Below are positions 1 through 57,024 of a stretch of DNA of 64,000 nucleotides, one piece after another (the stretch's first letter is position 1; the number at the start of each line of letters is the position of its first letter). Under the pieces are notes generated by a model. The model was not told the DNA's origin and made no database searches. It saw only the letters and a list, made by a program, of their open reading frames with translations. Source of the stretch: a virus; IMG/VR virus record IMGVR_UViG_3300047564_005433, positions 9,392-73,391 of that record. The stretch is one strand, 5' to 3'. The translations under genes and the position numbers were made by a program.

Positions 1-245
1 CAAATACCAGCGAGCATTTCGCCTGCGTATTGGTGAGCTTCACGAAGATTGTCAAGAGCTGCTTGGCGCTCGTCGCGAGCCTTGTAGAAAGCATCTGGTC
101 CTTGAGGATAAAAATCCCGACCATTAAGCTCGGCTTTTACTAGAGCATCAATGGCTTTGTCAATGGCTTGGTAAGCATTGGCGTAGCCGTCTCTGAGCGT
201 GGTGAAGCCAGTGCCGTTAAGGTGGATGGTGGGGATGGTTGCCAT
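1..245 (-). CDS. Hypothetical phage protein, truncated at window edge
   Basis: Manual translation MATIPTIHLNGTGFTTLRDGY... is open to position 1. Confidence 0.6.
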   Translation of the reverse strand, partial: MATIPTIHLNGTGFTTLRDGYANAYQAIDKAIDALVKAELNGRDFYPQGPDAFYKARDERQAALDNLREAHQYAGEMLAGI

Positions 246-274
246 GGTTTGAGGCGCGAACGAGGGAACAATAC

Positions 275-303
275 AAAAGAAAGGGGCCTGATGGCCCCTT
301 TGT
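275..303. terminator. Rho-independent terminator hairpin
   Basis: AAAGGGGCC-TGAT-GGCCCCTTT with A/T flanks. Confidence 0.7.
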
Positions 304-312
304 CACAAAGCT

Positions 313-504
313 TTACAAAGACAAAAGTCGCTTGATGTCGCGCTCCACATTCTTCAAGCTGTGTCTGTCTGTCGTGCTTTTGCTGCAGACCAGCATTTTG
401 CCAGAAGAATGCTTAAAAACATAATGCTTTGTTTGTCTATGCAAAACAAAGCCATGCTTTTTAACAAGCGCAAACAATTCTCGTCTATTGTCCTTGAGAG
501 CCAT
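313..504 (-). CDS. HicA-like mRNA interferase
   Basis: 63 aa basic protein with pattern L..HGF...RQTKH.VFKH..G...V...DIKR; start overlaps the upstream stop (TAATG). Confidence 0.65.
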   Translation of the reverse strand: MALKDNRRELFALVKKHGFVLHRQTKHYVFKHSSGKMLVCSKSTTDRHSLKNVERDIKRLLSL

Positions 505-734
505 TAAGCGTCGCCAGCAAGTATTTGGCCAATTTCTGTTTCTGGGCCATCGCTGTAAACGAGGCAATTAGATTTCCAGGACAAAGGATTTTTACCTTCT
601 CCCACCTCTTCCGACCAGATAGAAGGACGTTCGTTGGAGACTATTTCATTGGCGAAATCCTCCGCTTCGCAACTGTCTTCAGCCCAAACATAGGCTTGGT
701 AGTTAATTTCAACAACGTACAGTTTCTTTTCCAT
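504..734 (-). CDS. Hypothetical protein
   Basis: ORF in a tightly packed minus-strand run. Confidence 0.6.
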   Translation of the reverse strand: MEKKLYVVEINYQAYVWAEDSCEAEDFANEIVSNERPSIWSEEVGEGKNPLSWKSNCLVYSDGPETEIGQILAGDA

Positions 735-736
735 GA

Positions 737-943
737 TCAAAGCACCTTCCAAATGTCATCTTGCAAAGCGTCTGCAAGCGTGATTAGCAAGTCTTTCTTG
801 CTTTTATAAGCGGGCTTATTAACGCGGGAAAGAATAAAAGAGCGAGCAGAAGAACGATCATTGGAGCTGTAATCTTGCCATTTGTGCTTGGCATTGTCAG
901 AAACCATTTTGGCAATGGCTTGTTGCGTTTTGGTGAGAGGCAT
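737..943 (-). CDS. Hypothetical protein
   Basis: ATG ORF, tightly packed. Confidence 0.6.
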   Translation of the reverse strand: MPLTKTQQAIAKMVSDNAKHKWQDYSSNDRSSARSFILSRVNKPAYKSKKDLLITLADALQDDIWKVL

Positions 944-946
944 GGT

Positions 947-1153
947 TCAAAGATTTCGGGAGTGGATGTAAATAGACAAGCTTTTAATTTTGCCTTCTAA
1001 CTTGCCAATGTAATTAAACAGGCGCTCAAGCATCACGCCGTCTTCTTCCATTAGCTCTTCTGCTACTGGTCGCCCTTCGGGGAGCAAATACCGAGAAAAC
1101 AGCACCCTGTCTCTGTTTGACATGCGTGGTTTGTTTTTACGAAAGAAGCGCAT
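947..1153 (-). CDS. Hypothetical protein
   Basis: ATG ORF, tightly packed. Confidence 0.55.
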   Translation of the reverse strand: MRFFRKNKPRMSNRDRVLFSRYLLPEGRPVAEELMEEDGVMLERLFNYIGKLEGKIKSLSIYIHSRNL

Positions 1154-1156
1154 TGT

Positions 1157-1435
1157 TCAGAAGACGAGGGTTTGTCCATTGGCTTTGATGCTTGTCACGC
1201 GCTCACAATCAAACGAACGCCAAGCACCTTCCCCTTCTTTACGAGCGATGGAGAAATCACGACAACGGACAATGCTGGGCTTTTTGATTACCGTGCCAGT
1301 GCCCTTGATTTCCTTGGTGTCCCAGGGATTGAACTGGAGCTTGCGCAGGGAACCGTCTGCCTTAACGAATTCCACTGAAACAATGCTGTGGCCAGCATTG
1401 AAGATGAACTGTTTAATGCGGGAGGTTTTGTCCAT
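1157..1435 (-). CDS. SH3/WYL-like beta-barrel phage protein
   Basis: V.F.KADGSLR...WRSF..ERV pattern. Confidence 0.55.
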   Translation of the reverse strand: MDKTSRIKQFIFNAGHSIVSVEFVKADGSLRKLQFNPWDTKEIKGTGTVIKKPSIVRCRDFSIARKEGEGAWRSFDCERVTSIKANGQTLVF

Positions 1436-1516
1436 GAGGAGCTGTCGCCAGCGAAGGAACGAGGAAGAAAGAAAGGGGGAGCCTCTTGCGAAGCTCCTTT
1501 CCGATCGACCGAAGGA

Positions 1517-1546
1517 ACTATAGGCTCAACTGAGCGGGGCTGTCAA
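1517..1546 (-). promoter_or_regulatory. Sigma70-type promoter
   Basis: TTGACA-N18-TATAGT on the minus strand upstream of the 1435 ORF. Confidence 0.6.
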
Positions 1547-1730
1547 GCCTTGGTACGGGGAAGCCGTTGGCAATGCGGCAGTAGCGCTCAGGATGCAGGA
1601 GCATGCACTTCTCCAAGCCTTCCTTGTTGGGCAGCACGTTAGGGGAAGCTGCAATGGCAAAGGCACCTAGACCAAAGATGAGGCTTACGAGCAGGAAGGA
1701 AGCGGTGTCTTTCATAGCTTTGAAATGCAA
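1518..1730 (-). CDS. Small membrane or secreted protein
   Basis: N-terminal hydrophobic helix and two Cys. Confidence 0.5.
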   Translation of the reverse strand: MHFKAMKDTASFLLVSLIFGLGAFAIAASPNVLPNKEGLEKCMLLHPERYCRIANGFPVPRLDSPAQLSL

Positions 1731-2068
1731 ACGTTTGTAACGCCTTGCGAGGGGCGGGCAATACGAGAGAAAGCGCCGATGGAAAGATCGAGAATGCGCC
1801 CTCCGTAGAATGGCCCGCGATCTGAGACGGTCAACACCACTTGCTTTCCATTGTCACGGTTCTTAACAAGAAGCTTCGTGCCAAATGGAAGCCATGGATG
1901 GGCGGCGATCATTGCTTGGGGATTCATGGGGCGACCATTGGCCATTGTCTGCCAGGCGTAGCCATCACCATGCCCTCCATAGAAGCTTGCTTCACCACAT
2001 TGGAGCGTTGCTGCTTGCGCCTGGAGAGGGCATAGCAGCAGGAGAGAAAAAAGGAAACGTTTCATCAA
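1712..2068 (-). CDS. rlpA: RlpA-like (DPBB) lytic transglycosylase
   Basis: Signal peptide; GEASFYG, ANG, AAHPWLPFGT, V.DRGPF..GRILDLS..AF motifs. Confidence 0.85.
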   Translation of the reverse strand: MMKRFLFSLLLLCPLQAQAATLQCGEASFYGGHGDGYAWQTMANGRPMNPQAMIAAHPWLPFGTKLLVKNRDNGKQVVLTVSDRGPFYGGRILDLSIGAFSRIARPSQGVTNVCISKL

Positions 2069-2177
2069 TTAGTACGAAAGAACTAGCGAGGGCCATGCCG
2101 TCTCCGACAAGGCAGCCCCTATTGTGCCATGAAACTGCTCGTTGCTGCCGAACGGACTTGGCGTGTTATGCTTTTGA

Positions 2178-2388
2178 AGCACTCGGCCCTAGCGGCTTAA
2201 TTGCTGCTCTCGTCTTCGGGCGAGCCGTGAGGATGGGCGTTTCTGATGATGCGGGCGAAGATCGAACGATCTAGCCAAGGAGTTTTTGCATGGTCTCCTG
2301 CGAGGCGCATCATCTCCCTACGCAACTGATGGGAAACAGAAAAATCGGAGGGTGTAAAGAGAAGGGGCCGCAAGGCCCTTTTTCTTTT
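2178..2388 (+). ncRNA. Putative structured non-coding RNA
   Basis: Extended -10 TGnTATGCT at 2164-2172, several hairpins including a cUUCGg tetraloop, long-range pairings and a terminator at 2361-2388. Confidence 0.5.
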
Positions 2389-2435
2389 GCCAATACAAAG
2401 CCAGTTAGACTCAGGCAATACAAGATCAGCCGATC

Positions 2436-2603
2436 ATGAAGCTTTCTGCAGAGCAGGAAAGAGAAAGGCTTAAACGATGGATGGCAAGCGGGGAAGTTTA
2501 TGACCCTCGCAACGAAGAAGATTTTGACACTTGGTCCGTAGGGATGGAGCCTCTTCCTGGTGATACAACGTGGGCAAAGAAAAAGCCCCTTGAGGGGCTT
2601 TAG
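2436..2603 (+). CDS. Small hypothetical protein (55 aa)
   Basis: Manual translation MKLSAEQERERLKRWMASGEVYDPRNEEDF...; ends in a terminator hairpin. Confidence 0.5.
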   Translation: MKLSAEQERERLKRWMASGEVYDPRNEEDFDTWSVGMEPLPGDTTWAKKKPLEGL

Positions 2604-2670
2604 CAGGATTCTTGATAAATGGCGTTTATTGGAAATCCTGATAATTGACGAGGGCTCTCAGTGGGTCTGA

Positions 2671-2889
2671 CTACTGGTCTTCAAGCTCATCAGCGATGGC
2701 GAGTAAGTCGTCCGCGTCGCACTGCCATATGTCGTGGCCAGGATGCCTCTGCGTATGGGCTACAGCAGCACGAAGGGCGGCGGCAGCAATGTCCCTAGAG
2801 TCATTTAGGATGTCATCTGGGCCATAGCAGCAAGCGCCATTGGCGGCATCCAACACAGCTTGGGCAGCAGGTGAAAGTTGTTGAGTCAT
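2671..2889 (-). CDS. Hypothetical protein, paralog of 3391-3639
   Basis: Shared LS.AAQAV..AA, IAAA.LRA and LL.IADEL motifs. Confidence 0.7.
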   Translation of the reverse strand: MTQQLSPAAQAVLDAANGACCYGPDDILNDSRDIAAAALRAAVAHTQRHPGHDIWQCDADDLLAIADELEDQ

Positions 2890-2901
2890 TAGTTGATCGG
2901 A

Positions 2902-3372
2902 CTAAGAGGGCTGGGGCAAAGCGTTGGCGGGGAGCCAGTGGGAAAAGCCCAGCCATTGGACAGAAGGCAACACGTGTTGAGTTGGTACTAAATACCAAGA
3001 TTCCCAAATGTCGTCGTCTTCCGGGTTGTACTGGTGAAAACCCCAACACCTCCCTTCTTCATCGCAATCTTCCGGTCCTGGCAGGCGCTCGCTCACTGGG
3101 ATGGACTGAGTTGAACTATCTGGAGATCCCGGATGGTTGCCCCAGCGAGCAAGGACAGCACGGGCATAGGCACGCCAGCTTTCGGGCTCACCGCTCTGGT
3201 CGATCTCGGTGAACAGCTCGTCAAGAGCCTCATCAGTCGGCTCCTCCGGCTCAGGCTCAGCCAGGGCGTCGCGGACACGCAGCATTAGGGGAGACAAGTG
3301 CATCCGATCTGTGGGAATACCGCTATCAATAGCGTCAACCAACTCAGCGCACAGTCGTTTGTAATCGGTCAT
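2902..3372 (-). CDS. DUF551-like phage protein
   Basis: IPVSERLP and SHWLP motifs. Confidence 0.6.
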   Translation of the reverse strand: MTDYKRLCAELVDAIDSGIPTDRMHLSPLMLRVRDALAEPEPEEPTDEALDELFTEIDQSGEPESWRAYARAVLARWGNHPGSPDSSTQSIPVSERLPGPEDCDEEGRCWGFHQYNPEDDDIWESWYLVPTQHVLPSVQWLGFSHWLPANALPQPS

Positions 3373-3390
3373 GGTGTTAAGTGAGGTGGA

Positions 3391-3639
3391 CTACTGGGCA
3401 TAAAGCTCATCAGCAATAGAAAGAAGTTGCTGACGGCATTTTTGTCTTGTGTCCCGCTCAAGCTGCCAACGCTCATCAAGAAAGTGAAGCGGCTCTTCTG
3501 GAACTATTTGATCTGCAACAGCACGTAAAACAGCGGCTGCAATCTCTTCAGCTTGGCAAGGATAGTCGTCTGGATCAAAAGAGCTGACATAAAGGGCAGC
3601 TTTTGCTACTGCTTGTGCAGCAAGTGAAAGTTGAGACAT
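3391..3639 (-). CDS. Hypothetical protein, paralog of 2671-2889
   Basis: Shares motifs with 2671-2889. Confidence 0.7.
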   Translation of the reverse strand: MSQLSLAAQAVAKAALYVSSFDPDDYPCQAEEIAAAVLRAVADQIVPEEPLHFLDERWQLERDTRQKCRQQLLSIADELYAQ

Positions 3640-3653
3640 AGAAGTGATGTTGA

Positions 3654-3992
3654 CTACTCGGGCAGGGATTCAAGAGCTGTCTTGATGGTTTCAAGGTCTT
3701 GGTGAAACTCTCTGGTGTCATCAGCGCCTGTGGCTATGGCATAGAGAGCACCCAGCGCCTGCTCCTTCAAGCTCGGCGGCTTGGTGCGGCGGGCGGTGCG
3801 GAGACCCCGGCTTAAAGTTTCCCAGTGATCTGCAACTAGCAACTCACAGCACGCCTCCAGCTCCTGATCAGCGCCAGCCTGGTAAGCCTGAACAAACAAA
3901 GAGTCAACATCAGCGCCCATGGCTAGAGCCTGTTTGCACCAGGCATCAACCTGCCACTGCGGCGGAGTAATCGGATGGTTTTTGTCAGTCAT
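3654..3992 (-). CDS. Hypothetical phage protein
   Basis: ATG at 3992 (MTDKNHPITPP...GADQELEACCE...PPSLKEQAL). Confidence 0.65.
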   Translation of the reverse strand: MTDKNHPITPPQWQVDAWCKQALAMGADVDSLFVQAYQAGADQELEACCELLVADHWETLSRGLRTARRTKPPSLKEQALGALYAIATGADDTREFHQDLETIKTALESLPE

Positions 3993-4026
3993 GAGAAAGA
4001 GAAGTGTGTAGAAATTGGCAATTTGG

Positions 4027-6339
4027 CTAGATGGAAGTGATGAGACGATAGCGCTTGAGGATTTCCTCTTGCTCTTTATCTCGCCAGTATTGAAGCCTAC
4101 GCTCAAGCCTTGCCGTGGCAAGTTGCATTACGCTTCGCTTGTCATGGTCCCAATCAAGCAATGGATCAGAATTGCTGGCCAAAGAGCTGCTCGTAGGCAT
4201 GAGAGATAGCGCGAAATTTCCTAAGATGATGATCCCTATCTTTCGCCAACAATTCCGCGAGATCTTTAACGAGCTGGTCGCCATTGTCATTGTCAAAGTA
4301 TTCAAAAATAGCGTCCGTAAGTGTGTCTTTGGGCGTGCTCACAGTTTGCCTCCTTTAATGGCATTGTTGTAGTTCATCAGATATTCTTCAAAATCAGCGC
4401 CAGTGGGAGCTTCTTTACAAAGCTCTTCATGGTTCTCCTTGAGCATTTCCAAGCTCACAACAAATGCACAACGAATGCGATTCAAAGCAAGTTGTTGCAC
4501 GAGATTGGGCTCTTCATCAATAGCCTTTTCAATGGTGCAAATGTATTCCTGCAGATCAGTCATGGCAAAGCTGCGCGTCACCATTGGCTGACCAAAGCTC
4601 ATGGCAAGCTCGTTGTCCTTAAAAGCAGAAACGGGATGGTTCGGCAGCAGGTGATTGAAAGAGACGGTCACGATGGAAAAGCGGAGGGCTAGCGACGTTC
4701 GCCGTCGCATGGCCATAGTATGCCATCAAAAAGGCCCCCATCAAGGGGGCCGTTCATAAATCGTTACAAAGCTCGTGCTGGCTTTCGCAAGGCCTGCGTG
4801 GCAATGCTCAAATTCTTAGTGATGGGCAATGGCTTTTCCCTCCACTTGATGGCAATGGCATGGCAAGTGCCCACTGGCATCAGCTCAGCGTGCCTGTAAG
4901 CCCTGTCCAGCAGAATTTGATAGGCCTGGCGTTTTGGTTTGCTCATTGGCCCCTCGGGCTCTTCAATGTTGGTGCGAGCGAAATCAGCCAGCTCCGTGAT
5001 GTCATCTAGTTCGTTCGTGGCAATAACAAAATGCCTGCCACGTTGCTGCACCTTTCGCCATGCTGGATGAATGGGAGGGTTTTCCATGGCCAAGGCTTGC
5101 GCTTCTTCTCGGAGTTGAGGAGGAATGCAAATGTGAACCATGCGAGGCAAGGAATGCTCTTCAACCAAGGAGAGCTGATAATCCATGGTTAGGCGAAACG
5201 GAATTGTCCGAAGCGAAAGGAACGAGAGCCAATGGCAAGGCGACATTCGCCAAAACCATCGTACATAGTGCCAAGAAGAAAGCTATTCCTCCATTGGAAA
5301 CAAAATCGTCCTAGGCGGAAATGGCCAGTGGCATCAGTGCAATGGAAAGAGAACGTCATGGGCTGGTTTTGTCTTTAGTGACAGTAGCTTCAATGGCATT
5401 AGCAAGCTGCAGCTTGCTTAAATCAGGAAATTGTTTCGTACTAACACGAATCATTTCCACTGCCGCCAAAATGCCTTCATTCATGGCGTCTTCAGTGACT
5501 TTTGCAATCACTGCACGCATTGCAGCTTCTTCTATTGGTGTCATTTGTTAATAACAGGAAGTGATTGGCCCAGTGTCTCAAGCCAGCAGAGCATACACCA
5601 ATGGCCGTTATGACCAGGAATCGTACTCACAATGGTATGGGGATGAACACCGTGTTTTGGGCAATCAATTTTGGCAGCTTCAACAACGAGAGTGCTTTTC
5701 CACTCTAGGTCTGTCAATTGTGTCATAACTGTGGATCTTCAGGAAGCGGAGGAATTTCTTCAATGAGAGCAATCTTTACATCGGGGCGCATTGCAAGAAG
5801 AAAATGCTCTGCTTGTTTTGCTGAAATTGCCCCAAGGGCAATTTTCTTCCCTTCTGAAGTGGTAATACAAAACGTACGACAAAGTGAGGCCATTACCAAC
5901 TTTCCTCCTCAAGCTCTTCAAGGATGTGTTGACTGAGCGTTTGTTCAAGCATGGGCTTCCATCCGCCGTCGCCTCCAATGCTATTAATTTCTCCCAAGAG
6001 ATGGAGGGCATCAGCAACGCGAGTGGCGTCCATCAGACAGCTACAGGCCATACTCGGCTCCTCGCCAATCAGCTCCTCAAACATGCCAATGTGCAGCTCA
6101 AACCATTTACCAAGACAGAACAGGGCAATTTGCCTGTAGGTTTCGTCGCCATGCTTTTCGAGCATGGCTTCAATGGTGGCGGCCAGCTTTGGAGGAATGC
6201 CTACGGTGCCATGGTCCTGCAGGCCAGGGGAGATTGAAGAGGCAATAGCTTGACGCTTGCCGTCTTTGGCGGCTACGGCTTGGCGCAGGAAATCGTCAAC
6301 GGAGGCGAATTGATCCAATGCAAGGAAGCGTTTCGTCAA
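4027..6339 (-). other. Run of small hypothetical ORFs (e.g. 4339-4716, 4764-5246, 5356-5544, 5541-5726, 5893-6339)
   Basis: Contiguous minus-strand ORFs with no recognisable domains. Confidence 0.5.
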
Positions 6340-6363
6340 TAATGGCGCCTTAAGGCGCCGTTG

Positions 6364-7119
6364 TCAATAATCATCTTCATTAATTGTTTGTAAAGGCATG
6401 GTTTCAGGAATGGGCTCACTTTCTGGCTCGGCATCAAAGCTGATGGTCTCAGCAGACGCAAGGAGAGAATTGCCACGTCGTTCTTCCGTAGCCTTCGCTT
6501 CCTTCTCCTTTTCAATGGTGGAAGACAAGTCTTTTAGGAAGGTTCGGTAGGAAGTGTCTTGGTTTTCTACTGGCTTGATTTCGTTCAAGCCCAGCAGCTT
6601 TGCTTGTTCCACCAAGGAGTTTTTGGCCACGTTAAGGAACGAAGCATCACCAGCGCTTTCTTCTATCTTCACCATTTCCTTTCCGCCATCGTCACCGCCG
6701 TCCATGATGGTCACTGTCTTTTTGCGCTTACTGGTTTCAAAGCTTGCCAATGCAAGATCTTTTAGGTCCATTTGCTCTTTCAACAAACGCGCCCGATGAG
6801 TGTCTTGATTCTTGAGAATCTCTTGCGTGTATAGGTCTCTGTTGAAATGCCTATCTCCATTGACTGTTTCTTTGCTTAGTTTTAGTACATTCGCGATCTG
6901 ACGATTGCTCATCTTCGCTGCCAACAATTCTTGCACCATCCATCGCCTTACGCCAAGCATTTCCTTTGTATAAATGCCAGCACCATGCGTGCCGCCCTTT
7001 GATTTATGCTCGCGGATGGTTTCGTATTGCGTAATTGGTACGCCTGCCTTTTCTAAGGCTTTCCTCGCATAAGCTTCTTCTTCTTCAGGCGTGGCGAATT
7101 CAATCTCTGGACGAGGCAT
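6364..7119 (-). CDS. HTH protein, candidate terminase small subunit
   Basis: HTH MSNRQIANVLKLSKETVNGD, helical middle and AKLLGL motif resembling TerS. Confidence 0.5.
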   Translation of the reverse strand: MPRPEIEFATPEEEEAYARKALEKAGVPITQYETIREHKSKGGTHGAGIYTKEMLGVRRWMVQELLAAKMSNRQIANVLKLSKETVNGDRHFNRDLYTQEILKNQDTHRARLLKEQMDLKDLALASFETSKRKKTVTIMDGGDDGGKEMVKIEESAGDASFLNVAKNSLVEQAKLLGLNEIKPVENQDTSYRTFLKDLSSTIEKEKEAKATEERRGNSLLASAETISFDAEPESEPIPETMPLQTINEDDY

Positions 7120-7125
7120 TGTTTA

Positions 7126-7783
7126 TTATTTTGCTCCTCGCATTGTATCCCCTTTTCCATGGAGAGTACGGACAAACAATTCAGTGAAACGTTCCATGCG
7201 AGAAGCCACGACAGTGGCTGGACCATCATCAATTGCTTTCTTGAGCATGCAAAGCTCTTCCCACTCAGAGTCAGACAATGGCACGATGATTTCCATAGTT
7301 AAGCAAAGGGGCGCATAAAGCGCCCCGTTTCTCCACAATCAATGATACTGCCAGAAGGCTTTTTCTAGCAAATCATCAAAATCGTTAAGCTTTTTAGGGC
7401 AATACTTTCGGACAAATTCTTCCATTTCCTTATGGAAGCTATCGACAATTTCTGCATAGGCAGCATCTAGTCCACGAGCGTCCATTTCATGCTCAGCTTC
7501 GCGCTCATAAGCAAGAGCCATGCAATCTTTTGGATTGGTGCAAAATTCACGCATTAGCCTGCTCCTGAGTGGCGAAGCCATTATCAATTAATTGCTTGAT
7601 TTCATGCAAGCTAGAGCGCCAATGGCGCTCGCCATTCTCATCCCTTGCTCCATAAATTGTTCGGGCCGCTGGTTGCGGCCCTTTGCTTGGCTTTGAAAAA
7701 CCGTGATGGACAATAGGCAAAATTTCTGCCCCATTGTGCTCTAGGAGGGGAAGCTTGTCTACTGGTTGAGGCGGGAGAAGCAT
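7126..7783 (-). other. Three small hypothetical ORFs (7126-7338, 7339-7587, 7547-7783)
   Basis: Packed minus-strand ORFs; exact starts uncertain. Confidence 0.45.
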
Positions 7784-8179
7784 TGCGCTGGTAGATTCCT
7801 TTGCAATGTTAAGAGCGTTTTAGACGATTGAAGGTTGTTTATGCCTTTTGTCTAGAACGTTCCGCCTTGGGGGCTCCACTATGTCTTGAACGGCATTGCG
7901 AAGGTTTGAGGCATCGTCTGGCTTTGATCGTTTTGTTAGGTGATCTTGGCCTGATGATTGAGCGCTCCGCCCTGGGGGGCTACGCTTGCCCTCGCTGGCC
8001 AGGCAGCGTAGGCTTGGTAGCCCCCTCATGCCCTGCTGAGCATGTCTGGATGCACGCGGGACATTCCGGAACCAGTGTACAGCCCCCCACCAAATTTCCA
8101 CAAGAGGGCCAATCCTTGAACTGTCTTCCTCTATGGAAAAACGGGCTGATGGTAGGATTCTTGGGCTTCGCAAGCCACC

Positions 8180-8335
8180 ATGACTGCTTCCCTTCCTGAC
8201 GGTTTCAAGATTATTAAGCTCCCTCGTAACGGCCCCAAGCCAGGGCAAAGCACCAAAGACTGGCTCTATGGCAAGGACAAAAATTGCCAAGCCGAGCGTG
8301 ACGCTGCTAAATGGCAGGAGGGCAAGCGTGCCTGA
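8180..8335 (+). CDS. Small hypothetical protein (51 aa)
   Basis: Manual translation MTASLPDGFKIIKLPRNGPKPGQSTKDWL... Confidence 0.45.
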   Translation: MTASLPDGFKIIKLPRNGPKPGQSTKDWLYGKDKNCQAERDAAKWQEGKRA

Positions 8336-8522
8336 AGAAATGGACTACAAACAGGCCTACTTAGAGATTGTCTCAGTGGTGGCGCCAAGGTTTCCAGAAT
8401 GCTCCATCTATACCGTCGATCTGGTTCGGCTCTTAGCCTTCGAGAACGATACGTTGAGAATGGCGCTGAATTTACCACTGGCCACTAAGGTTGTGGCAGC
8501 CATTGAAGACGATTTGAATTAA
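8328..8522 (+). CDS. Hypothetical protein
   Basis: GTG or ATG start overlapping the previous ORF; followed by a terminator. Confidence 0.5.
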   Translation: MPEEMDYKQAYLEIVSVVAPRFPECSIYTVDLVRLLAFENDTLRMALNLPLATKVVAAIEDDLN

Positions 8523-8528
8523 GCAAAG

Positions 8529-8555
8529 CAAAGGGGCCATCAGGCCCCTTTTTCA
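8529..8555. terminator. Bidirectional terminator
   Basis: AAAGGGGCC-ATCA-GGCCCCTTT between convergent ORFs. Confidence 0.7.
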
Positions 8556-8669
8556 TTCTTCGTCTTCGTCTTCGTAGTCTTCTTCAAGATCATCTTCAAA
8601 GATTTCAGGAGCTTCTTCAACGATGGGAAGAGGAGCAGCACTTTCGCTGTTATCAAAAATTAGCTTCAT
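8553..8669 (-). CDS. Very acidic 38-aa peptide
   Basis: MKLIFDNSESAAPLPIVEEAPEIFEDDLEEDYEDEDEE. Confidence 0.4.
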   Translation of the reverse strand: MKLIFDNSESAAPLPIVEEAPEIFEDDLEEDYEDEDEE

Positions 8670-8767
8670 AATTTCATGAGCGCTTTCTGTTTATACTAGA
8701 AAAAGCTGCTCGCTACGGTAGGCAGCGGGGAGGCTAGCAATAGAGCCTCCCTCCTATTGCGAGACAG

Positions 8768-10822
8768 TTAGAACCAATCATCCTCGTCTTCCTTCACGGG
8801 AAGACTTTCATTGGCTTGACATAGCACAAAGTCCTCAGCCGCTACGGGAATGGGGGCGAAAATTTCATCGTCTTTTTCATTTTCAACTTCCGTGAAAACT
8901 GGTTCTTCCTGAAAATCCAAGTCAGGCTCCACGTAGTCCCACGAATGGTAGAGGCGATCCCGCTCCCCATTGGGACCAACAATAAAGCTGCTGCTAATTA
9001 AGCCTTGCCGCCTGGCCACTTCCAGCATCTTGCCCGTGGAGCCAGTGTCAAAACTGCCAGAAAGCATTGCCACTTGTTGCTTGGTGAAGCGTTCAGTTTT
9101 GCGCATTTCCACGACGTTCACCACTTGATTCAACTCTTCCAGGGAGCCACCAACTGGTCCTGCATAGTGCCAACCATACGTGAGATTGTCGCGCTTGAGC
9201 ACGTGCTTGCCCGTGAGGCCACTCCTGCTCTTCATCCACTCCAGCGTAAATTCATTTGGATCGAAGCTTTCAGAACGCGTGAGCTTCACCACTTCACTAA
9301 CGTTGTCCACAAAGCTTGTTGAGTCGCGCAGGCCTCCGCTTTTGTTGAGGTGGTGGAGAATGAGGATGGAGCAGCGATAAGTGTTGGCAAGATCACGCAG
9401 GCCGTAAATAACGTCACCAGCGTTGCTCTTCACCATATCCACGTCCATGCCAGCAAGGCAAGCAGTGAGGCTATCAATCACCACAAACAGCGGACGTTCT
9501 TTCCTCACGTATTCTTCAAGCTGCCTCATGTGAGCAAACCGCCAGGTTTCCCAAAATTCAATGGTGCGAGGAGCAAGGGCAGTGTCTTGATAGCCAATAA
9601 CGGAAAGCTTTTCGCTGGTATCAATGAGGGGCTCGTCACTTTGGCAAATGAGAGTGCGGCCCTTCATGCAACGCCTGCCGCTCCACTTTGTACCAAGACC
9701 AATATTGAGCGCCCAGTTATATGCCACTGTTGATTTGCCCGTGCCGCCTCCAGCAGCAAGCAATGTCACGCTTCCCAAGGGGATGATGCCAGCAATGAGC
9801 CATTCACGAGCTTTGTCAGCATTGGCAATAGAAAGTGCATCAATACTTTCAAGCTCTTCTCTGCCATAGATGCGTTCTTTTGCTTCGGCAATGATCTTCT
9901 CAACATTCTGTTGGCTCATCTTCACGCCACGTTGCTCTAGCCAATTACCAGTTTCGTAAGCAATGCGTGAATCATTGGCATAGAGGCCAACAAAATTTTC
10001 AATGGTGGAAATAATCTCCTCGTAAGCAGGCTTTCCGTCTTGCCCTTGATGGCGGCTTTTGGAAACAATGGAGGAGAGAAGATCGTCTTTAGAAGCGCCT
10101 TCCTCAATGTAATCGCCTAAGTCGTAGCCATTTCCAGAAGGAAGATTGTCCCATTCCCATGAACGAGGGTCTGCATAAAGCCAACTTGCCCCAGGATTAT
10201 CACTGGCAATTTCTGCCATGAAAGCAACGCCCTGCTCGTCACGATCAGGACAAAGGACAAGCTTTTTGTTGCGGAAGAGGCTTGAATAGTCACCGTTTGT
10301 GCGATATTGCTTGCTGCCACCGAGGAAAGTGATACAAGGAATATCAAGAGCCCACACTGCTTCGCACGTCAATTCGCCTTCGACAATAAAGATGGGAAGG
10401 CCAGTTTCGTCGCTTTTTGCTATTGCATCGTCGTAACGATAAGGAAGAACATTCGCCTTGATTTCCTTGAGCGCAGTTTTATGGCCCTTCTCATTTTTGT
10501 CAATAGTGGGAAAATCTTGCCAAATCTTTTTGCTGCCTGAAGTGTCGTCACGATGGACAATTACCACTTCCTTTCCATTGTTATTTTTGTAGACAAACGA
10601 ATAGTTACCAGCGTCACGAGGGGGCTTCTCCCATCTGGTGAGCGGGGCTAAAGCATCGCGAATTTCAGCACGGTGAGCAGGGCTGGTGTCATGCCAGCAG
10701 TTGTATCCCCCGTTGTTCTTGTTGACAGTGAAATCATTCCCGCCGCATGCAGGGCATTGATACTTGCCTGGCTCGTTGCTTGGCTCCAGTTGTTCGAGGT
10801 GATCGAGGATGGAGAAGGTCAT
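8768..10822 (-). CDS. Primase-helicase (Zn finger + TOPRIM + RecA-like AAA helicase)
   Basis: CPACGG...CWH; IVEGE and DRD TOPRIM motifs; Walker A AGGGTGKS; Walker B VVIDS; ILHH. Confidence 0.9.
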   Translation of the reverse strand: MTFSILDHLEQLEPSNEPGKYQCPACGGNDFTVNKNNGGYNCWHDTSPAHRAEIRDALAPLTRWEKPPRDAGNYSFVYKNNNGKEVVIVHRDDTSGSKKIWQDFPTIDKNEKGHKTALKEIKANVLPYRYDDAIAKSDETGLPIFIVEGELTCEAVWALDIPCITFLGGSKQYRTNGDYSSLFRNKKLVLCPDRDEQGVAFMAEIASDNPGASWLYADPRSWEWDNLPSGNGYDLGDYIEEGASKDDLLSSIVSKSRHQGQDGKPAYEEIISTIENFVGLYANDSRIAYETGNWLEQRGVKMSQQNVEKIIAEAKERIYGREELESIDALSIANADKAREWLIAGIIPLGSVTLLAAGGGTGKSTVAYNWALNIGLGTKWSGRRCMKGRTLICQSDEPLIDTSEKLSVIGYQDTALAPRTIEFWETWRFAHMRQLEEYVRKERPLFVVIDSLTACLAGMDVDMVKSNAGDVIYGLRDLANTYRCSILILHHLNKSGGLRDSTSFVDNVSEVVKLTRSESFDPNEFTLEWMKSRSGLTGKHVLKRDNLTYGWHYAGPVGGSLEELNQVVNVVEMRKTERFTKQQVAMLSGSFDTGSTGKMLEVARRQGLISSSFIVGPNGERDRLYHSWDYVEPDLDFQEEPVFTEVENEKDDEIFAPIPVAAEDFVLCQANESLPVKEDEDDWF

Positions 10823-10911
10823 GGGGGAAGGTGAGATGAAAGTGTTCTAGCACCAGAATCCTGCCGCTGCAAGGCTTTCACAATTCTTAACGCGCTCTTC
10901 AGTCCCAAGCC

Positions 10912-10939
10912 TTGACCTCCTGGCCATAACGGCTATATT
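10912..10939 (+). promoter_or_regulatory. Sigma70-type promoter
   Basis: TTGACC-N16-TATATT; similar to the promoter at 15145. Confidence 0.55.
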
Positions 10940-11029
10940 GGCCATGTCCCTCGCAAGGCAAAACCATGGAGCTTTGGCTGGCCGCCATTATCGGCTTCAG
11001 CATTGGCTACCTTCTCGGCCCTTTGTTTT

Positions 11030-11272
11030 ATGACCATTGATCACGGCGAACCGAAGAAGAGTCGCCACTTCACCCTCACTGACACCGCCTACTCTCATTT
11101 GAAGGATATTGCCCATGAAGCACGACTGAGCCTCAGCGAGACTGTCGAACGTCTCATCCGCACCACTTCTCCATGGGAAGGAAATGCAGTGCTTTCTGAC
11201 GGTGCATTCTCCTTGGTAGAAGACCATTCCATTGTTTCTGAAATTGAGGATTATGAAGGTTTCTCAGCTTAA
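11030..11272 (+). CDS. Ribbon-helix-helix-like DNA-binding protein
   Basis: KKSRHFTLTDTAYSHL..IA....LSLSETVERLIR. Confidence 0.55.
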   Translation: MTIDHGEPKKSRHFTLTDTAYSHLKDIAHEARLSLSETVERLIRTTSPWEGNAVLSDGAFSLVEDHSIVSEIEDYEGFSA

Positions 11273-11716
11273 GCTTGCTTGCGAAGAGTTTCTTCTGGAA
11301 TTTCCCGACACAGAAGTGAAGCTTCTCTGGGAAGAAGGCGTTCTCACTGAGAATTACGATCCCGAATGTTTAGAAGAGCCCACTGACGTGAGGATCATCA
11401 GCGACTGGCCGCTTCCTGGTGAAAGCCTAGTCAATAAAGCTGAAAATCCTGAGAAGATGTTTGTCATCATGTATGGCGAATATCAGCCTTCAGGCTTTGG
11501 CTACAAAGCAGTTGCTTGTCTTGATTGATGGAAACGCCCAATCTCACCACCTCCGAGTTTTATGCTCGCATGAAGCAAATGGATCTTGATGTGATTGATT
11601 GCCTTGATTCTTTCCTTTTGGATACTGGCGTAGGCGTTGCTGGGCTGCGTCTTTCGTTCAGCAAAGAAAGCGAAGAATATCTTCTTGATTGGCACTTCGT
11701 TTTTCCTGAAGAATGA
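11232..11716 (+). other. Two hypothetical ORFs (~11253-11528, 11525-11716)
   Basis: Overlapping start and stop codons within the operon. Confidence 0.5.
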
Positions 11717-12651
11717 ACCACACTATCCTCACCTACTCCCCCTCCGACTTTTTCAGCATGGAAGACTCCGCAAAACAAGCAATGATGGACCGTTACAACG
11801 GCGTCTTCTCCCCCCTAGAGATCAGCGCTGAAGCTTTTAAGGCTGCTTACGACACACCTGACATTGGCCCCCACATTGAAAAGGACTACAAAGGCCTCTC
11901 CTATCTGTCGTGGCCGTTTGCCTTTCGCTATCTGAAGGAGCATTTCCCGACGTTGTTTGTAGCGTTTGAAGAGAAGACCATTGGCTGGCCCGTATTTGGC
12001 GAGCCTGGCGCCTTCATCCTTCGCCCCTATCTCACTGATGGAATCAAGCGCACGCCTGCGCTGGTGTTCCCCATCATGGACCGCAAGCACAATTCCATTC
12101 AACAGCTCGATGGTCGTGCAATTAGCGACAACATCCAACGTGCCAGTGTCAAAGCCATCGCTACGTTCACGGGCCTTGGTCTTCGGCTCTATGCCGGAGA
12201 GGACATTCCTAAGGAGGAAGCGCCAAAGCTGCAGCAGGACACGCTCAAGACGCCTGCACGCACGAAGAGTGCCGCTAAGGAAAGCACTGCTGCTTCTGGA
12301 AGCGAGGGGCCTGTTGCCGCCGCTGATACAGGGTCCGCTGAACCCTTCGATGCAAAGGCAGCTCTTACGGCAGTGTGCAAAGCCAATCCTTTGAACTATG
12401 TCGACGAAAAAGCTTCTATGGCTGCAGGTAAAGCTGCTCTTGAAAGTATTGGACTTGCTCGCGCCACAGAAATCAAAAGCTGGCAAGCCTTCGGAAACGT
12501 CGTCGCAGCAATGATGACACTATGGGCTAAGCAAGAGCAAATTGTCATCAGCAAAGCTGAAATGACAGAAGAAATCAATGCCGTGCGTGGCCTTGAAGAC
12601 ACCAGTGCCATTATTGAGGGGATGAAGGCTTTCGTGGCAAAAAAGAAATAG
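11713..12651 (+). CDS. Sak/Rad52-like ssDNA annealing protein (DUF1071-like)
   Basis: GLSYLSW.FA, PIMD.K..SI, IQRA.VKAIA..TGLGL.LYAGEDIP motifs. Confidence 0.8.
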   Translation: MNHTILTYSPSDFFSMEDSAKQAMMDRYNGVFSPLEISAEAFKAAYDTPDIGPHIEKDYKGLSYLSWPFAFRYLKEHFPTLFVAFEEKTIGWPVFGEPGAFILRPYLTDGIKRTPALVFPIMDRKHNSIQQLDGRAISDNIQRASVKAIATFTGLGLRLYAGEDIPKEEAPKLQQDTLKTPARTKSAAKESTAASGSEGPVAAADTGSAEPFDAKAALTAVCKANPLNYVDEKASMAAGKAALESIGLARATEIKSWQAFGNVVAAMMTLWAKQEQIVISKAEMTEEINAVRGLEDTSAIIEGMKAFVAKKK

Positions 12652-18611: not shown

Positions 18612-18959
18612 ATGACTGACGCTGTGAATCATCCCCGTCATTACGCTAAAAATGGCGGCATTGAATGTATTGAGGCCATTGAAGCTTCAATGGACAAAGA
18701 CGATTTCCGTGGCTTCCTCAAAGGGAACATTCAAAAATATGTTTGGCGTTATGAAGAAAAAAATGGCCTAGAAGATTTGAAGAAGGCCAGTTGGTATCTT
18801 GATCTTCTCATCTTCAATATAGAAAGCGAGCCGCAACAAGAAGCCGTTGAAGCCCTTGAGAATGCTTCTATGGAATGCAAAGATGGATTCTGTCCAATGC
18901 CTGGAATTCGCTATGACCTTCCTGGAAAGCAAATCACTTTTGCCCCAGTAGAAGGCTAA
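18612..18959 (+). CDS. DUF3310 family protein
   Basis: D.VNHP.HY...GIECIEAI...GF.KGN..KY.WR...KNG.EDL.KA.WYL. Confidence 0.85.
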
Positions 18960-19438
18960 GCAGCACTACAACAAAGCCCCCACAAGGGGGCTTTTTCATG
19001 CTCAATTTTTTGGTGCATCGGCAGGACAATCCCTTTCTTTTCGCACCACTCCTCAAGATGCTTTTGGTCAGTGTGAGCGCTAACAAAGCTATTGCAATAC
19101 ACCCACGCCATCACAATTTCCTCTCGTTGCTCCGTCCAAAAAGGTTGCACTCGCCACCATTCAAGCATCGGCAAGTCTCCCTTCTTGAGATTACAGCTCT
19201 TACATGCCGGAAGCATGTTCCAGCGCGAGAAGTGTGGGCCGCCTTTGCTCTTGGGAACAATGTGATCAATCGTAAGCTTTTCTCCCCATTCTCCGCAATA
19301 AGCGCAAGCGCATTGCCCAAATGGTCCCCTCAAAAAATAGTCTTCAAAAATACTCTTACGGAATCTACGTTTTGCATCACCAGGGCGAAGTTCAATGAGA
19401 GAATAAAGCAGCTCATCAGGACCATTCGCTCTAAGCAT
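18956..19438 (-). CDS. HNH endonuclease
   Basis: CAYCG...[13 protein letters not shown]....N..PAC..CN..K. Confidence 0.85.
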
Positions 19439-20857: not shown

Positions 20858-21261
20858 TGAATTGGCAGTCTTGGTTTAATGCTCTTTGCTACGAACTAGG
20901 CTTATGGGCCGCCTCAAAGCGGCCTTCTCTTGCTCTTCAGCCATGGTTCAAGCAATTAATGGCTTGGTGCAGGCCTGACTGGGCAGAGTGGAAAACCAAA
21001 GGCGTCATGCAGAAAGTTGACCAGCAAGCAAAAACGCTGGTTAAACAATGGGAAGAAGAGGAACGAGAATCAAAAGCAAATGCCCTTGCATGGGAAGCCC
21101 ACAAGCTTTTTCCTGGTGCCATCGTCACGCCCCTTCCAGATGCCATTGTTCCATCAGTGCTCATTGAAACAGCCCCACCAGCGAACGCTAGTGAGGCCGT
21201 GAAAGCCCTTGGCGGTGAGCTAAGAATCACCTATCGCTTGCCAGACCAAGGAGAGTCCTGA
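20857..21261 (+). CDS. Hypothetical protein
   Basis: ORF coupled to the endolysin stop. Confidence 0.6.
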   Translation: MNWQSWFNALCYELGLWAASKRPSLALQPWFKQLMAWCRPDWAEWKTKGVMQKVDQQAKTLVKQWEEEERESKANALAWEAHKLFPGAIVTPLPDAIVPSVLIETAPPANASEAVKALGGELRITYRLPDQGES

Positions 21262-21451
21262 GGCGCTTCCATTTAGCAAGCTCCTTCTCGTGATAATCCT
21301 CCCACGAAGCGATGGTTTCGCTAAGAGCCTTGCAGGCCATAGCCGGATCATCGTCCGTTAGCAGCTCTGCAAGAATGTCGGAGAGACCCTCGGTCTGCTG
21401 CTTGTACCATTCGCCCTCTGCAACAAAAGGAAAGGCCATGGGAAGGGGCAT
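21227..21451 (-). CDS. Hypothetical protein
   Basis: ORF downstream of the structural gene. Confidence 0.5.
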   Translation of the reverse strand: MPLPMAFPFVAEGEWYKQQTEGLSDILAELLTDDDPAMACKALSETIASWEDYHEKELAKWKRLRTLLGLASDR

Positions 21452-22749: not shown

Positions 22750-22881
22750 TTATTTGCCTTGTCCTCGCGGAAGCTTTCGACCGTGCGAAGCTTTACTATT
22801 TGCTCCATTGCCTTGGCGCGTGCGCTTGCTTTTATTTGGCTGATGAAGCTTTTGCCCGTTAATGGTTTTGCTTGATGCCAT
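22750..22881 (-). CDS. Small basic peptide (RTRQG...RGQGK)
   Basis: MASSKTINGQKLHQPNKSKRTRQGNGANSKASHGRKLPRGQGK. Confidence 0.55.
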   Translation of the reverse strand: MASSKTINGQKLHQPNKSKRTRQGNGANSKASHGRKLPRGQGK

Positions 22882-23192
22882 CAGGACCAGGGCACTCCAG
22901 TGCCATTAGTGGGAGTGCGCTGTTGAGAAATTTGCTCTGCGAGAGCGGCTTCAATTTCAGCCACTTTTTCGTCGCCAAACTTTTCCTTCACCCAACCAGT
23001 AACGATGTCCGGCGTAAGTTGCGCATAAGGAATTTCATCATCTTCGTCGGGAGCTTCAAGCCCAAGACTGCCATACGCCGAACTGGCATATGTGCCGTCA
23101 TCAGCAGAAATTGTATAATGAACCGTGTAGACGATTCCATCAGCAAGGTGGCGCTCAAGATTGGCGACGCCCCATTGGTAAGTGATTGCCAT
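22881..23192 (-). CDS. Tail-fibre-associated protein
   Basis: W.V.NLER...DG.V.TVHY, IPY..LT...V.GWVK, GVPW. Confidence 0.6.
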   Translation of the reverse strand: MAITYQWGVANLERHLADGIVYTVHYTISADDGTYASSAYGSLGLEAPDEDDEIPYAQLTPDIVTGWVKEKFGDEKVAEIEAALAEQISQQRTPTNGTGVPWS

Positions 23193-23258
23193 GATTAAAA
23201 AGAATGGTCTTTGTTAGTTTAACAATGGAAAAGAAGGCGGCTTCTTCGGGAAACCGCC

Positions 23259-24113
23259 TCAAAGCACTGGCATCTCGTATTCCTGCGTGCTATTGCAATA
23301 GTGCTTGAAAATCACTTCGCTTGTATTGCCTGCCCAGTTGGCCACTTGTGGCACGGGAATGCCAGCTTCAATCCAGCGGCTAATAGCAGTGTGGCGACAA
23401 TCATACGGCCTATAAACATGGGAAATTAGCCCTGCTTCATGCAGAGGCGAAAGCTTTTTCCTGAAATAGCTCTGAAAGGCAAGCCGATTCCATGGAAAAA
23501 TAAATTCGTTTTCGCGAGGAAGCTCAGCAAGGATTTCTTGGCAACGAGCATTGATAGGCACCCAACGGCGCTTGTTGGTTTTCGTGCTGTTCTTTAAACC
23601 ATGAGTGAGTGTATAGTTTTGGTGTACCAAAAGCTTATTTTCCTTAATATCGTCCCACTTGGCTGCCCTCACTTCTCCAGTGCGCATTGCAGTTTGCAAC
23701 ATAAATTCCGTGTACCAAGACCAATTAACATCGCGATAAGTTAGCTTCGCTTCTAATGCGGCAAGGACTAGGCCAGTTTCATTTCGAGGGATGACAACGA
23801 TTTCCTCCTCGCGTTGAGGAGCCTTTGGCATTTTGAAGCTTGCCAATGGATTGCGAGCAACGATTGCCACGTCTTCTTGCGCCGCCCATTTGTACATAGT
23901 CTTGATGTACATAGCAACGCGCCTTGAAGTGAGCACTGGCTTCTCTCCTAAAGCCCAAATCATTAATTTTCGTGCCTCGTTAATGTCTTGAATGGGGCAG
24001 CGAGCAAGCCATTTACCCACCTGCTTGTAGTCTGAAGTGAGACTGGTTGGACATAAAGAAATGGAGCGCTCTTCGACGAAGGCGCTCCAGAGGCTTGAGA
24101 CAGTGGTGGTCAT
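23259..24113 (-). CDS. Tyrosine recombinase/integrase
   Basis: TAMRTGE (R), TKT (K), YDCRHT (H-x-x-R variant), AGN, FKHY (catalytic Y). Confidence 0.9.
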   Translation of the reverse strand: MTTTVSSLWSAFVEERSISLCPTSLTSDYKQVGKWLARCPIQDINEARKLMIWALGEKPVLTSRRVAMYIKTMYKWAAQEDVAIVARNPLASFKMPKAPQREEEIVVIPRNETGLVLAALEAKLTYRDVNWSWYTEFMLQTAMRTGEVRAAKWDDIKENKLLVHQNYTLTHGLKNSTKTNKRRWVPINARCQEILAELPRENEFIFPWNRLAFQSYFRKKLSPLHEAGLISHVYRPYDCRHTAISRWIEAGIPVPQVANWAGNTSEVIFKHYCNSTQEYEMPVL

Positions 24114-24134
24114 GCTGGTCTTAAGAGGAGACTC

Positions 24135-24163
24135 AAGTTACCAGCTTTGCAAGGCCTTGTCAA
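24135..24163 (-). promoter_or_regulatory. Promoter of the recombinase gene
   Basis: TTGACA-N17-TAACTT. Confidence 0.5.
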
Positions 24164-24184
24164 GTCAAAGCCTTCTGGCTCTGG

Positions 24185-24448
24185 CTAAAGAATTGACAAG
24201 CCGCCCTTGTGATCCAGCCCCACTGTAAGAAAAACAGTGCGAGTCGTCTTAATGTCGCCCATGCTTTTCTTGAACTCTTCAGTTTCTTTTTCGGGATACT
24301 TTGGTTCGTACTGCATGGTTTCCGGGTTCAAACGATTGCACTCGGCATCACCAAGGTGGTAGGTGTTGAGTGCTGCTTGTGCTTCTTTGATCTGCTCAGA
24401 GTCAAGACAAAACGACACTGGCACCTTAAAGGTTGCAATTAAATTCAT
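24185..24448 (-). CDS. Hypothetical protein
   Basis: ORF between the tail fibre and recombinase genes. Confidence 0.55.
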   Translation of the reverse strand: MNLIATFKVPVSFCLDSEQIKEAQAALNTYHLGDAECNRLNPETMQYEPKYPEKETEEFKKSMGDIKTTRTVFLTVGLDHKGGLSIL

Positions 24449-24575
24449 GGTTACTAGAGCAAGTGTCTTGCCACCTATAATAAGGTTTCACCCAGTGGCG
24501 TTACGATGCCGCTGCGCCCTCAGGCTTAGGTCTGGGGGCAATTTAATGCCTTGCCAGACCCAGAGGAGAAGGGGA

Positions 24576-57022: not shown

Positions 57023-57024
57023 GT

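Follow-up and report, generated by a model that had tools for sequence, protein, structure and literature searches.

Exact, ordered 14-bp linkers at the seams of a variable small-gene array in freshwater cyanophages

Small genes in a freshwater cyanophage and in other uncultured phages are parted by exact 14-base-pair (bp) linkers that come in few types, keep a fixed order and coincide with edges at which homology between phages breaks off. The array in question lies in IMG/VR record IMGVR_UViG_3300047564_005433, an uncultured virus of 73,391 bp with 127-bp direct terminal repeats, of which bases 9392-73391 were analysed (the window, 64,000 nucleotides (nt), to which all positions below refer). 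The closest isolate is Synechococcus phage S-CBS4, with a capsid protein 86% identical, and the source virus is a freshwater cyanophage. Four tandem minus-strand small genes, g1 to g4, occupy positions 2671-3992, and each stops at a TAG that continues as TC-N5-(C/A)ACT. A first-pass annotation made from the sequence alone had picked out this arrangement, and it holds for all four consecutive genes, each TAG being the in-frame stop. The half-matching site that the same annotation saw ahead of the first gene proved to be a real fifth member of the family, TAG-less here and heading arrays elsewhere, and its proposal of a cassette-like array is borne out, and the motif marks points of gene-content change between related phages. 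We suggest that the ordered, mutually distinct linkers may be the places at which co-infecting phages cross over in exchanges based on short homology, a reading to which we assign roughly an even chance.

Linker types, order and breakpoints

In the window, the motif TAGTCN5MACT (M being A or C) is matched five times, always on the minus strand, as compared with an expectation of 0.30, and a count of five was reached in no shuffle out of 100, which bears out the enrichment over a shuffled background that the first-pass annotation had put up for checking; the looser pattern TAGT-N7-ACT is weakly enriched, with 8 matches against 2.9 expected, a count reached by 2 of 100 shuffles. Across the whole 73,391-bp record the strict motif has no forward and five reverse matches. 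The fifth of these, TAGTCAGGGGCACT at 56657-56670 on the minus strand, lies inside gene 56297-57079 without array context, its TAG is not the stop of that gene (which falls at 56297), and it is probably a chance match. Four TAG stops in a row are unusual because TAG is the rarest stop in the window, used by 14 of 92 gene calls as against 26 for TAA and 52 for TGA.

We refer to the linker types as A (TAGTCAACATCACT), B (TAGTCCACCTCACT), C (TAGTCCGATCAACT), D (TAGTCAGACCCACT) and Z (TAGTTCTACACACT). Their comparison across phages took IMG/VR relatives of g2 and g3 as its starting point and used scans of sequence collections; these scans are samples, and every count from them given below covers the matches listed only. 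The exact 14-mers Z, A, B, C and D are found again in dozens of contigs from uncultured freshwater phages, where the genes to either side are unrelated. Scans with C, A and Z each gave at least 117-120 stretches, in which chance matches are mixed with many array-type loci, and a scan with the left flank GAAGCCCAG joined to the general motif (18 specified bases) gave at least 123 stretches, with about 60 different metagenome identifiers among 80 loci listed. Behind this left flank, 107 distinct contexts hold just 17 variants of the variable positions, and six variants cover 94 of them; the linkers are therefore few exact types and not a loose motif. Among cellular genomes (one per prokaryote species), the 19-mer of left flank and site C has no match, and the 19-mer of left flank and site A has a single match, in a metagenome-assembled genome of the Eubacteriales, likely by chance.

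The types are also ordered. In 77 distinct arrays there are 76 adjacent pairs of known type, and 74 of these follow the order Z, A, B, C, D, the remaining two being C-C and none being reversed, and Z comes first in the arrays of other phages as well. The first-pass annotation correctly observed that the spacers differ between sites, but its treatment of this difference as a caveat does not stand: at any one position in the array, the spacer type is conserved from phage to phage, and the differing spacers are the key feature of the linker family.

For mosaic counts we considered sites that have another site of the family no more than 2.5 kilobases (kb) away and are flanked on both sides by 45 nt or more, a set of 157 contexts. 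Site C, in 39 contexts, links 19 left-flank with 20 right-flank clusters in 38 different combinations; site A, likewise in 39 contexts, has 15 left and 29 right clusters, site Z 19 and 16 (28 contexts) and site D 12 and 15 (17 contexts). Because the exact 14-mers recur with different flanking genes, the linkers mark seams of accessory-gene swapping. These counts bear directly on the possibility that the linkers have no special role and are 3′ untranslated tails inherited with paralogous gene families, the arrays being shaped by rare illegitimate recombination and selection. Linker type does partly track the upstream family: the conserved 3′ end of g1 is followed, in 32 contexts, by exact A in 21, by C in 3, by one- or two-base variants in about 6 and by another or no site in 2, while the gene beginning MKLEIKL is followed by D and that beginning MPYFTKK by C in every case seen. 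Genes g2 and g4 are moreover paralogous, as the first-pass annotation had it (41% identity, expectation value (E) 2e-6). Illegitimate joints would scatter, however, whereas the observed joints sit at a fixed 11 nt after the TAG in all types; a single left-flank cluster is joined to up to 9 (site C) or 18 (site A) right-flank clusters, and the same cassette, together with its leader, stands behind different linker types. We accordingly give inherited tails only a slight probability; the linker is an element standing on its own.

The edges of the breaks were located in pairs of same-type sites that resemble each other by 85% or more in one flank and by no more than 45% in the other. Identity stops 0-1 nt 5′ of the TAG in 32 of the 44 pairs listed and 0 nt 3′ of the ACT in 30 of 41; no conservation was found in the bases beyond the edges of the 14-mer. 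Blocks of 95% identity or more have 50 unique internal ends, of which 18 fall within 6 nt of a site edge, as against 1.9% expected, and the sites are breakpoint hot spots, not the sole breakpoints. The short leader from ACT to ATG moves with the downstream gene and, with its cassette, may follow different linker types. In the source phage itself, positions 3643-4013 (371 nt, comprising the Z core, g1 and A) are 100% identical in locus L100, where both flanks are unrelated, and to judge from this identity the cassette transfer is recent. Homology with L100 and L149 starts at site Z, and homology with L110 ends there, just after ...CACACT. In contigs assembled from other public runs, agreement with the window is lost precisely at 4012 (run X8) and at 2660 (run X5); further joints in such contigs lie inside g1 or g3 and show low likeness. 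Comparison of related phages for gain, loss or reordering of genes exactly at the sites, suggested at the outset as a check, is positive.

The array, its neighbours and its relatives

All elements of the array lie on the minus strand. The last backbone gene ahead of it (4027-4161, about 44 amino acids, ending ...RYRLITSI) has a homologue in S-CBS4 that directly precedes the terminator. The array is headed by site Z at 4003-4016 (AATTTCTACACACT, the TAG-less form of TAGTTCTACACACT), followed by g1 (3654-3992, 112 amino acids, phrog_32006, of unknown function) and by site A at 3643-3656, whose TAG is the in-frame stop of g1. Gene g2 (3391-3639, 82 amino acids) belongs to a family with the pattern LSPAAQAV...IADELxxQ and ends in site B (3380-3393), and g3 (2902-3372, 156 amino acids, an N-terminal and a C-terminal module) ends in site C (2891-2904), the TAG again being the in-frame stop in both cases. 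The g2 paralogue g4 (2671-2889, 72 amino acids) ends in the same manner in site D (2660-2673), which closes the array and has no gene after it. Beyond it, a conserved non-coding tail at 2582-2659, containing ...ATTATCAGGATTTCCAATAAACGCC..., carries the intrinsic terminator (2582-2601) that closes the operon; this tail is common to relatives (e.g. L110, L113, L121 and L148) whichever site ends the array. The operon holding the array is flanked by terminators at 4751-4733 and 2601-2582, and the guanine plus cytosine content of the array block is 0.532, as against 0.478-0.489 in its surroundings. Stop-codon read-through fusing the four genes was considered and rejected, the distance from g1 stop to g2 start being 14 nt, out of frame.

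The cassette genes themselves are poorly covered by reference families. Pfam searches with g1 to g4 found no family, even at E 0.01, and 20 of 28 sampled cassette and adjacent proteins fall in no PHROG family. The model of g1 is all-helical (mean predicted local distance difference test score 75.7, predicted template modelling score 0.43) and has no fold match in PDB, the best Foldseek E being 4.9, which speaks neither for nor against g1 as a site-binding or catalytic protein. No relationship between g1 and g3 was detectable. Gene g3 looks like a fusion: its first 80 or so residues form a gene of their own, ending ...ARWGK and followed by site C, in L019, L020 and other loci, and the remainder matches the C-terminal part of a 128-amino-acid gene in L009 and L118. 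Within g1, the conserved core (…GADQELEACCE…, window positions 3750-3880) reaches a summed contig depth of about 3300-3770 in run X6, compared with about 4-40 nearby; in lakes, this gene family is very abundant.

In S-CBS4-like phages the array stands between the gene ending ...RYRLITSI and the conserved non-coding tail with its terminator; in S-CBS4 that gene leads directly to the terminator, with no array. The closest relative, G004, has flanking proteins 84-92% identical and different cassettes. Its contig (73,130 bp, rated 100% complete) starts and ends within its own array, which suggests that population heterogeneity at the array breaks assemblies. G002, an 85-kb phage with an unrelated backbone that includes a family A DNA polymerase and a D5-type primase, carries an array of the form Z...C...D-like downstream of the primase. 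Other relatives of the cassette genes do without linkers. Most g3-related IMG/VR loci have the same gene families joined by overlapping stop and start codons, without the motif, and the marine isolates S-CBS2, S-RIP1 and S-H1 carry g1 homologues at loci without sites. A blastn search of 2600-4100 against phage isolates retrieved three marine Synechococcus phages (5 records), which match only in a short conserved stretch of g1, and a megablast search of window positions 1-12000 against phage isolates found nothing.

These junctions and relatives are the evidence on which to judge whether the linkers are an expression signal only, either a strong UAG-U stop context with an unstructured, G-poor restart spacer or an RNA processing site; breakpoints would then coincide with them because viable recombinants must break between genes. 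The sites overlap stops and lie 1-13 nt ahead of most downstream starts, within gaps of 15-27 nt between cassette genes. The junctions are G-poor and unstructured: shuffled sequences fold at least as well as the five 61-nt stretches around them, whose z-scores run from -0.28 to +1.49 (one at -0.28, the other four at +0.3 to +1.5). No promoter-like site was found within 2660-4016, nor any terminator-like match at the five sites. Shine-Dalgarno sequences are rare ahead of gene starts in the window, where pyrimidine-rich leaders are common, several with CACTT (examples precede 8768-10822, 5356-5544 and 21227-21451). These features would suit a role in expression. In the whole record, however, the motif is confined to the array and one intragenic match, and some 90 other junctions lack it; some sites come at array ends, where nothing but hairpins or non-coding DNA lies beyond, or at array heads, where no reading frame precedes them, and the distance from site to next start ranges over 1-42 nt. 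Nor would a loose signal freeze five central bases into few exact types across unrelated phages. Since the same gene families work in relatives where they are joined without linkers, the linkers are, on this comparison of sequences, dispensable for expression, and we regard a purely expression-related role as quite improbable. In 51 well-supported arrays, 56 of 83 gene ends are the TAG of a site; several other genes stop a few codons early with the site intact, or end in one-base variants such as TAGAC.... 

In some arrays (loci L096, L134, L165, L401 and G004; L106, L111, L127 and L131), the last site is followed by either of two recurrent hairpin-like non-coding elements, the one starting tgtaag…cttaca or tgtttacacattgcg…gtgttaaaca, the other reading cctaagcatctcctaatt…aattaggag. 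A 55-amino-acid gene at 2436-2603 on the plus strand, convergent on the array terminator, is kept in all five compared genomes, its homologue in the unrelated G002 being distant from the G002 array. The sole Rfam match is a sub-threshold ctRNA_p42d at 2360-2390 (plus strand; 29.7 bits against a gathering threshold of 50), outside the array, where it overlaps a terminator-like hairpin at 2365-2378. Elsewhere in the window, Pfam identifies structural proteins (portal, major capsid, Pam3/E217-type cement and tape-measure proteins) together with a PD-(D/E)XK nuclease, ThyX, dCTP deaminase and several HNH endonucleases.

How the linkers might exchange genes

The linkers part promoterless small genes of a hyperplastic accessory-gene array that lies last in an early operon, after its final backbone gene and ahead of its terminator. 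In the general form TAG-T(C/T)-N5-(C/A)ACT, the central five bases define the few discrete types, each holding a fixed rank (Z, A, B, C and D in the source phage). If the linkers are crossover points, the array would be stable because the linkers within one genome differ and so would not recombine among themselves; the same type occurs at the same rank in other phages and would therefore offer a patch of exact identity in a co-infected cell, often lengthened by the conserved ends of neighbouring gene families. Crossovers at linkers would swap the DNA lying between two of them, an ordered replacement. We infer that such exchange is driven by homology, without a dedicated enzyme, and its agent would be the general recombination of phage or host, through a single-strand-annealing protein with an exonuclease or through RecA.

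In favour of homology-driven exchange we count that the window encodes the single-strand-annealing protein Sak (11713-12651, by Pfam) and the PD-(D/E)XK nuclease. Rad52-like recombinases and annealing proteins are described as recombining short and diverged sequences (PMC3945230). Minimal efficient pairing lengths of 23-27 bp for Red-beta and 31-34 bp for RecA are quoted there too. In pairs of different junctions, an exact block of at least 23 nt surrounds the site in 63 of 375 cases for Z, 148 of 739 for A, 86 of 741 for C and 11 of 136 for D, that is, in 8-20% of pairs.

Several observations weigh against this reading. The 14-bp linker is shorter than the minimal pairing lengths of both Red-beta and RecA, and the median exact block is just 15-18 nt. 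No recombination protein is common to all array phages compared; a family search for Sak (PF06378) was positive in 0 of 5 array genomes, Sak homologues in G003, G004 and G005 being found by tblastn. Among the 50 block ends, 29 lie more than 15 nt from any site, and the 157-context set includes about a dozen chance loci from unrelated AT-rich phages. Homology alone, moreover, leaves the shared 14-nt length and the constant ends unexplained, as it does the retention of TAG at positions where no gene ends: the TAG is present in five true Z contexts that have no upstream reading frame, and in unascertained contexts the 11-nt cores are preceded by TAG in 25 of 29 cases for A, 20 of 20 for C, 16 of 16 for D and 17 of 22 for Z, and never by TAA or TGA.

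The same features would be expected if the constant ends TAGT(C/T) and (C/A)ACT were recognized by a dedicated, sequence-specific enzyme of phage or host, be it a recombinase or an endonuclease that nicks or cuts. The five bases in the centre would then be an overlap that has to match, as in heterospecific lox/FRT sites, and cassettes would be exchanged between sites of one type. With such an enzyme, a fixed 14-nt length with variation in the centre only, a TAG retained where it is not a stop and a site too short for efficient homology-driven exchange would all find an explanation, and discrete types in fixed order with no cross-type scrambling are the expectation for mutually incompatible sites. 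An HNH endonuclease (18956-19438) and the PD-(D/E)XK nuclease have homologues in all five genomes compared, including the unrelated G002, and these conserved nucleases are the sole candidates for such an enzyme among the genes seen. No candidate tracks the arrays, however: every G000 protein with homologues in G002 to G005 is also present in the array-less S-CBS4, PF00589 recombinases occur in only 2 of 10 other genomes, and g1, for which Foldseek found no match, is present in isolates without sites. Nine constant bases are also few for a recombinase, many homology ends lie elsewhere than at sites, and degenerate sites with altered constant ends persist. We hold an enzyme that reads the linker ends to be a minority prospect, though one of some weight, and the fuller proposal of a natural cassette exchange, in which a candidate phage or host enzyme would read ordered, incompatible 14-bp sites, swap early accessory genes and keep the array, to be improbable.

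A more specific enzymatic scheme, advanced in the first-pass annotation, was an integron-like system in which the tyrosine recombinase encoded at 23259-24113, the one PF00589 protein that Pfam identifies in the window, excises and inserts cassettes at the sites. The cassettes are indeed promoterless and co-oriented, each with a repeated site at its 3′ end, and cassette content varies between relatives. The core sites of tyrosine recombinases have inverted arms of about 11-13 bp around an overlap of 6-8 bp, integron attC sites are imperfect palindromes, roughly 57-141 bp long, that take up their fold in single-stranded form, an integron encodes an IntI-type recombinase beside its array, together with attI and a cassette promoter, and integron cassettes enter at the head of the array, hence their order is not fixed between arrays. 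In the linkers, the inverted part is AGT/ACT alone, and these arms of 3 bp, sometimes 4, are shorter than those of core sites. No attC-like imperfect palindrome was found in the array, whose short gaps and unstructured junctions have been described above, and the order of its sites, as seen in the adjacent pairs, is fixed. Neither was an IntI-type recombinase found beside the array, the only PF00589 gene of the window lying about 19 kb away. Such genes are present in one of five and one of five (2 of 10) other array-bearing genomes at least 90% complete, and this distribution contradicts the integron reading. We therefore abandon the integron-like system and the recombinase as its driver, a scheme that we consider scarcely credible.

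The recombinase gene itself sits in a second variable locus, 22881-24578 on the minus strand, between an 815-amino-acid gene (24576-27023) and a DUF7936 gene (22881-23192). In the window this locus consists of an 87-amino-acid gene and the tyrosine recombinase; G003 and G004 have different small genes there, flanked by TAGTC-N5-CACT sites that have other centres. At the stop of gene 24576-27023, the window has a decayed site, TAGTCCCCTTCTCC (24565-24578). From this arrangement the recombinase is more likely cargo of the second locus than a driver of exchange.

Significance and comparison with known systems

Two explanations of phage mosaicism have been rivals since the 1970s, crossovers at conserved linkers and random illegitimate joints filtered by selection. 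To our knowledge, clear natural linkers are rare, and the best-documented case we found is that of the promoter-early stem-loop (PeSL) elements of T4-type phages. The array described here is an unusually clean case, with exact 14-mers, few types, a fixed order and base-precise breaks, and its linkers are common to at least two unrelated cyanophage backbones, so that the linker hypothesis becomes directly testable by phage crosses and site mutagenesis. It also points to a locus of turnover among the small early genes of freshwater Synechococcus-type phages, plausibly with functions in host takeover or anti-defence. Should an enzyme turn out to read the sites, it would represent a new recombination system and a possible tool. 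Literature searches with the 14-mers Z, A, C and D found none of them (B was not searched), and nothing alike was found in the literature on cyanophage cassettes and hypervariable or intergenic regions.

In lambdoid phages, the modular theory of phage evolution (Susskind and Botstein; Botstein 1980; Clark et al. 2001) reportedly treats conserved boundary sequences as homologous crossover points. The linkers resemble these in being short conserved sequences at gene boundaries to which module exchange can be ascribed, and differ in forming one sequence family with constant ends, exact over many contexts and ordered within one array. Engineered cassette exchange with heterospecific lox or FRT sites relies on shared arms and differing spacers, such that only like sites pair and order is kept. 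Here the analogy is one of logic only, the linkers having constant parts of 4-5 bp as against 13-bp arms, and no recombinase having been found for them. In integrons, cassettes are promoterless and co-oriented, each followed by a recombination site that can include the stop codon. The array shares with them its promoterless, co-oriented small genes, the stop-overlapping site after each and a content that varies between relatives; unlike integron sites, which are alike in structure only, the linkers are sequence-identical across genomes, and the array has no adjacent IntI, no attC palindrome and a fixed order, and such arrays were not found in the cellular representatives scanned.

The closest published concept is that of the PeSL cassettes of T4-type phages (Arbiol et al. 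2010, PMC2839356; Comeau et al. 2014, PMC4122927). The PeSL element is described there as a composite of a sigma-70-like early promoter and a terminator stem-loop (PMC2839356), and mini-circles formed by exchange between nearby motifs have been shown (PMC2839356; PMC4122927). PeSL elements and linkers are alike in being short conserved intergenic motifs within hyperplastic regions full of small genes of unknown function, and in marking insertions, deletions and replacements and serving as exchange points between otherwise unrelated sequences. The linkers differ in measuring 14 nt, in overlapping stops and having neither a promoter match nor structure, in falling into discrete types of fixed order, and in occurring in cyanophages with siphovirus-type genes as well as on an unrelated backbone with a family A DNA polymerase. 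The prospects are about evenly balanced that the linker array represents a minimal analogue of the PeSL shuffling of T4-type phages.

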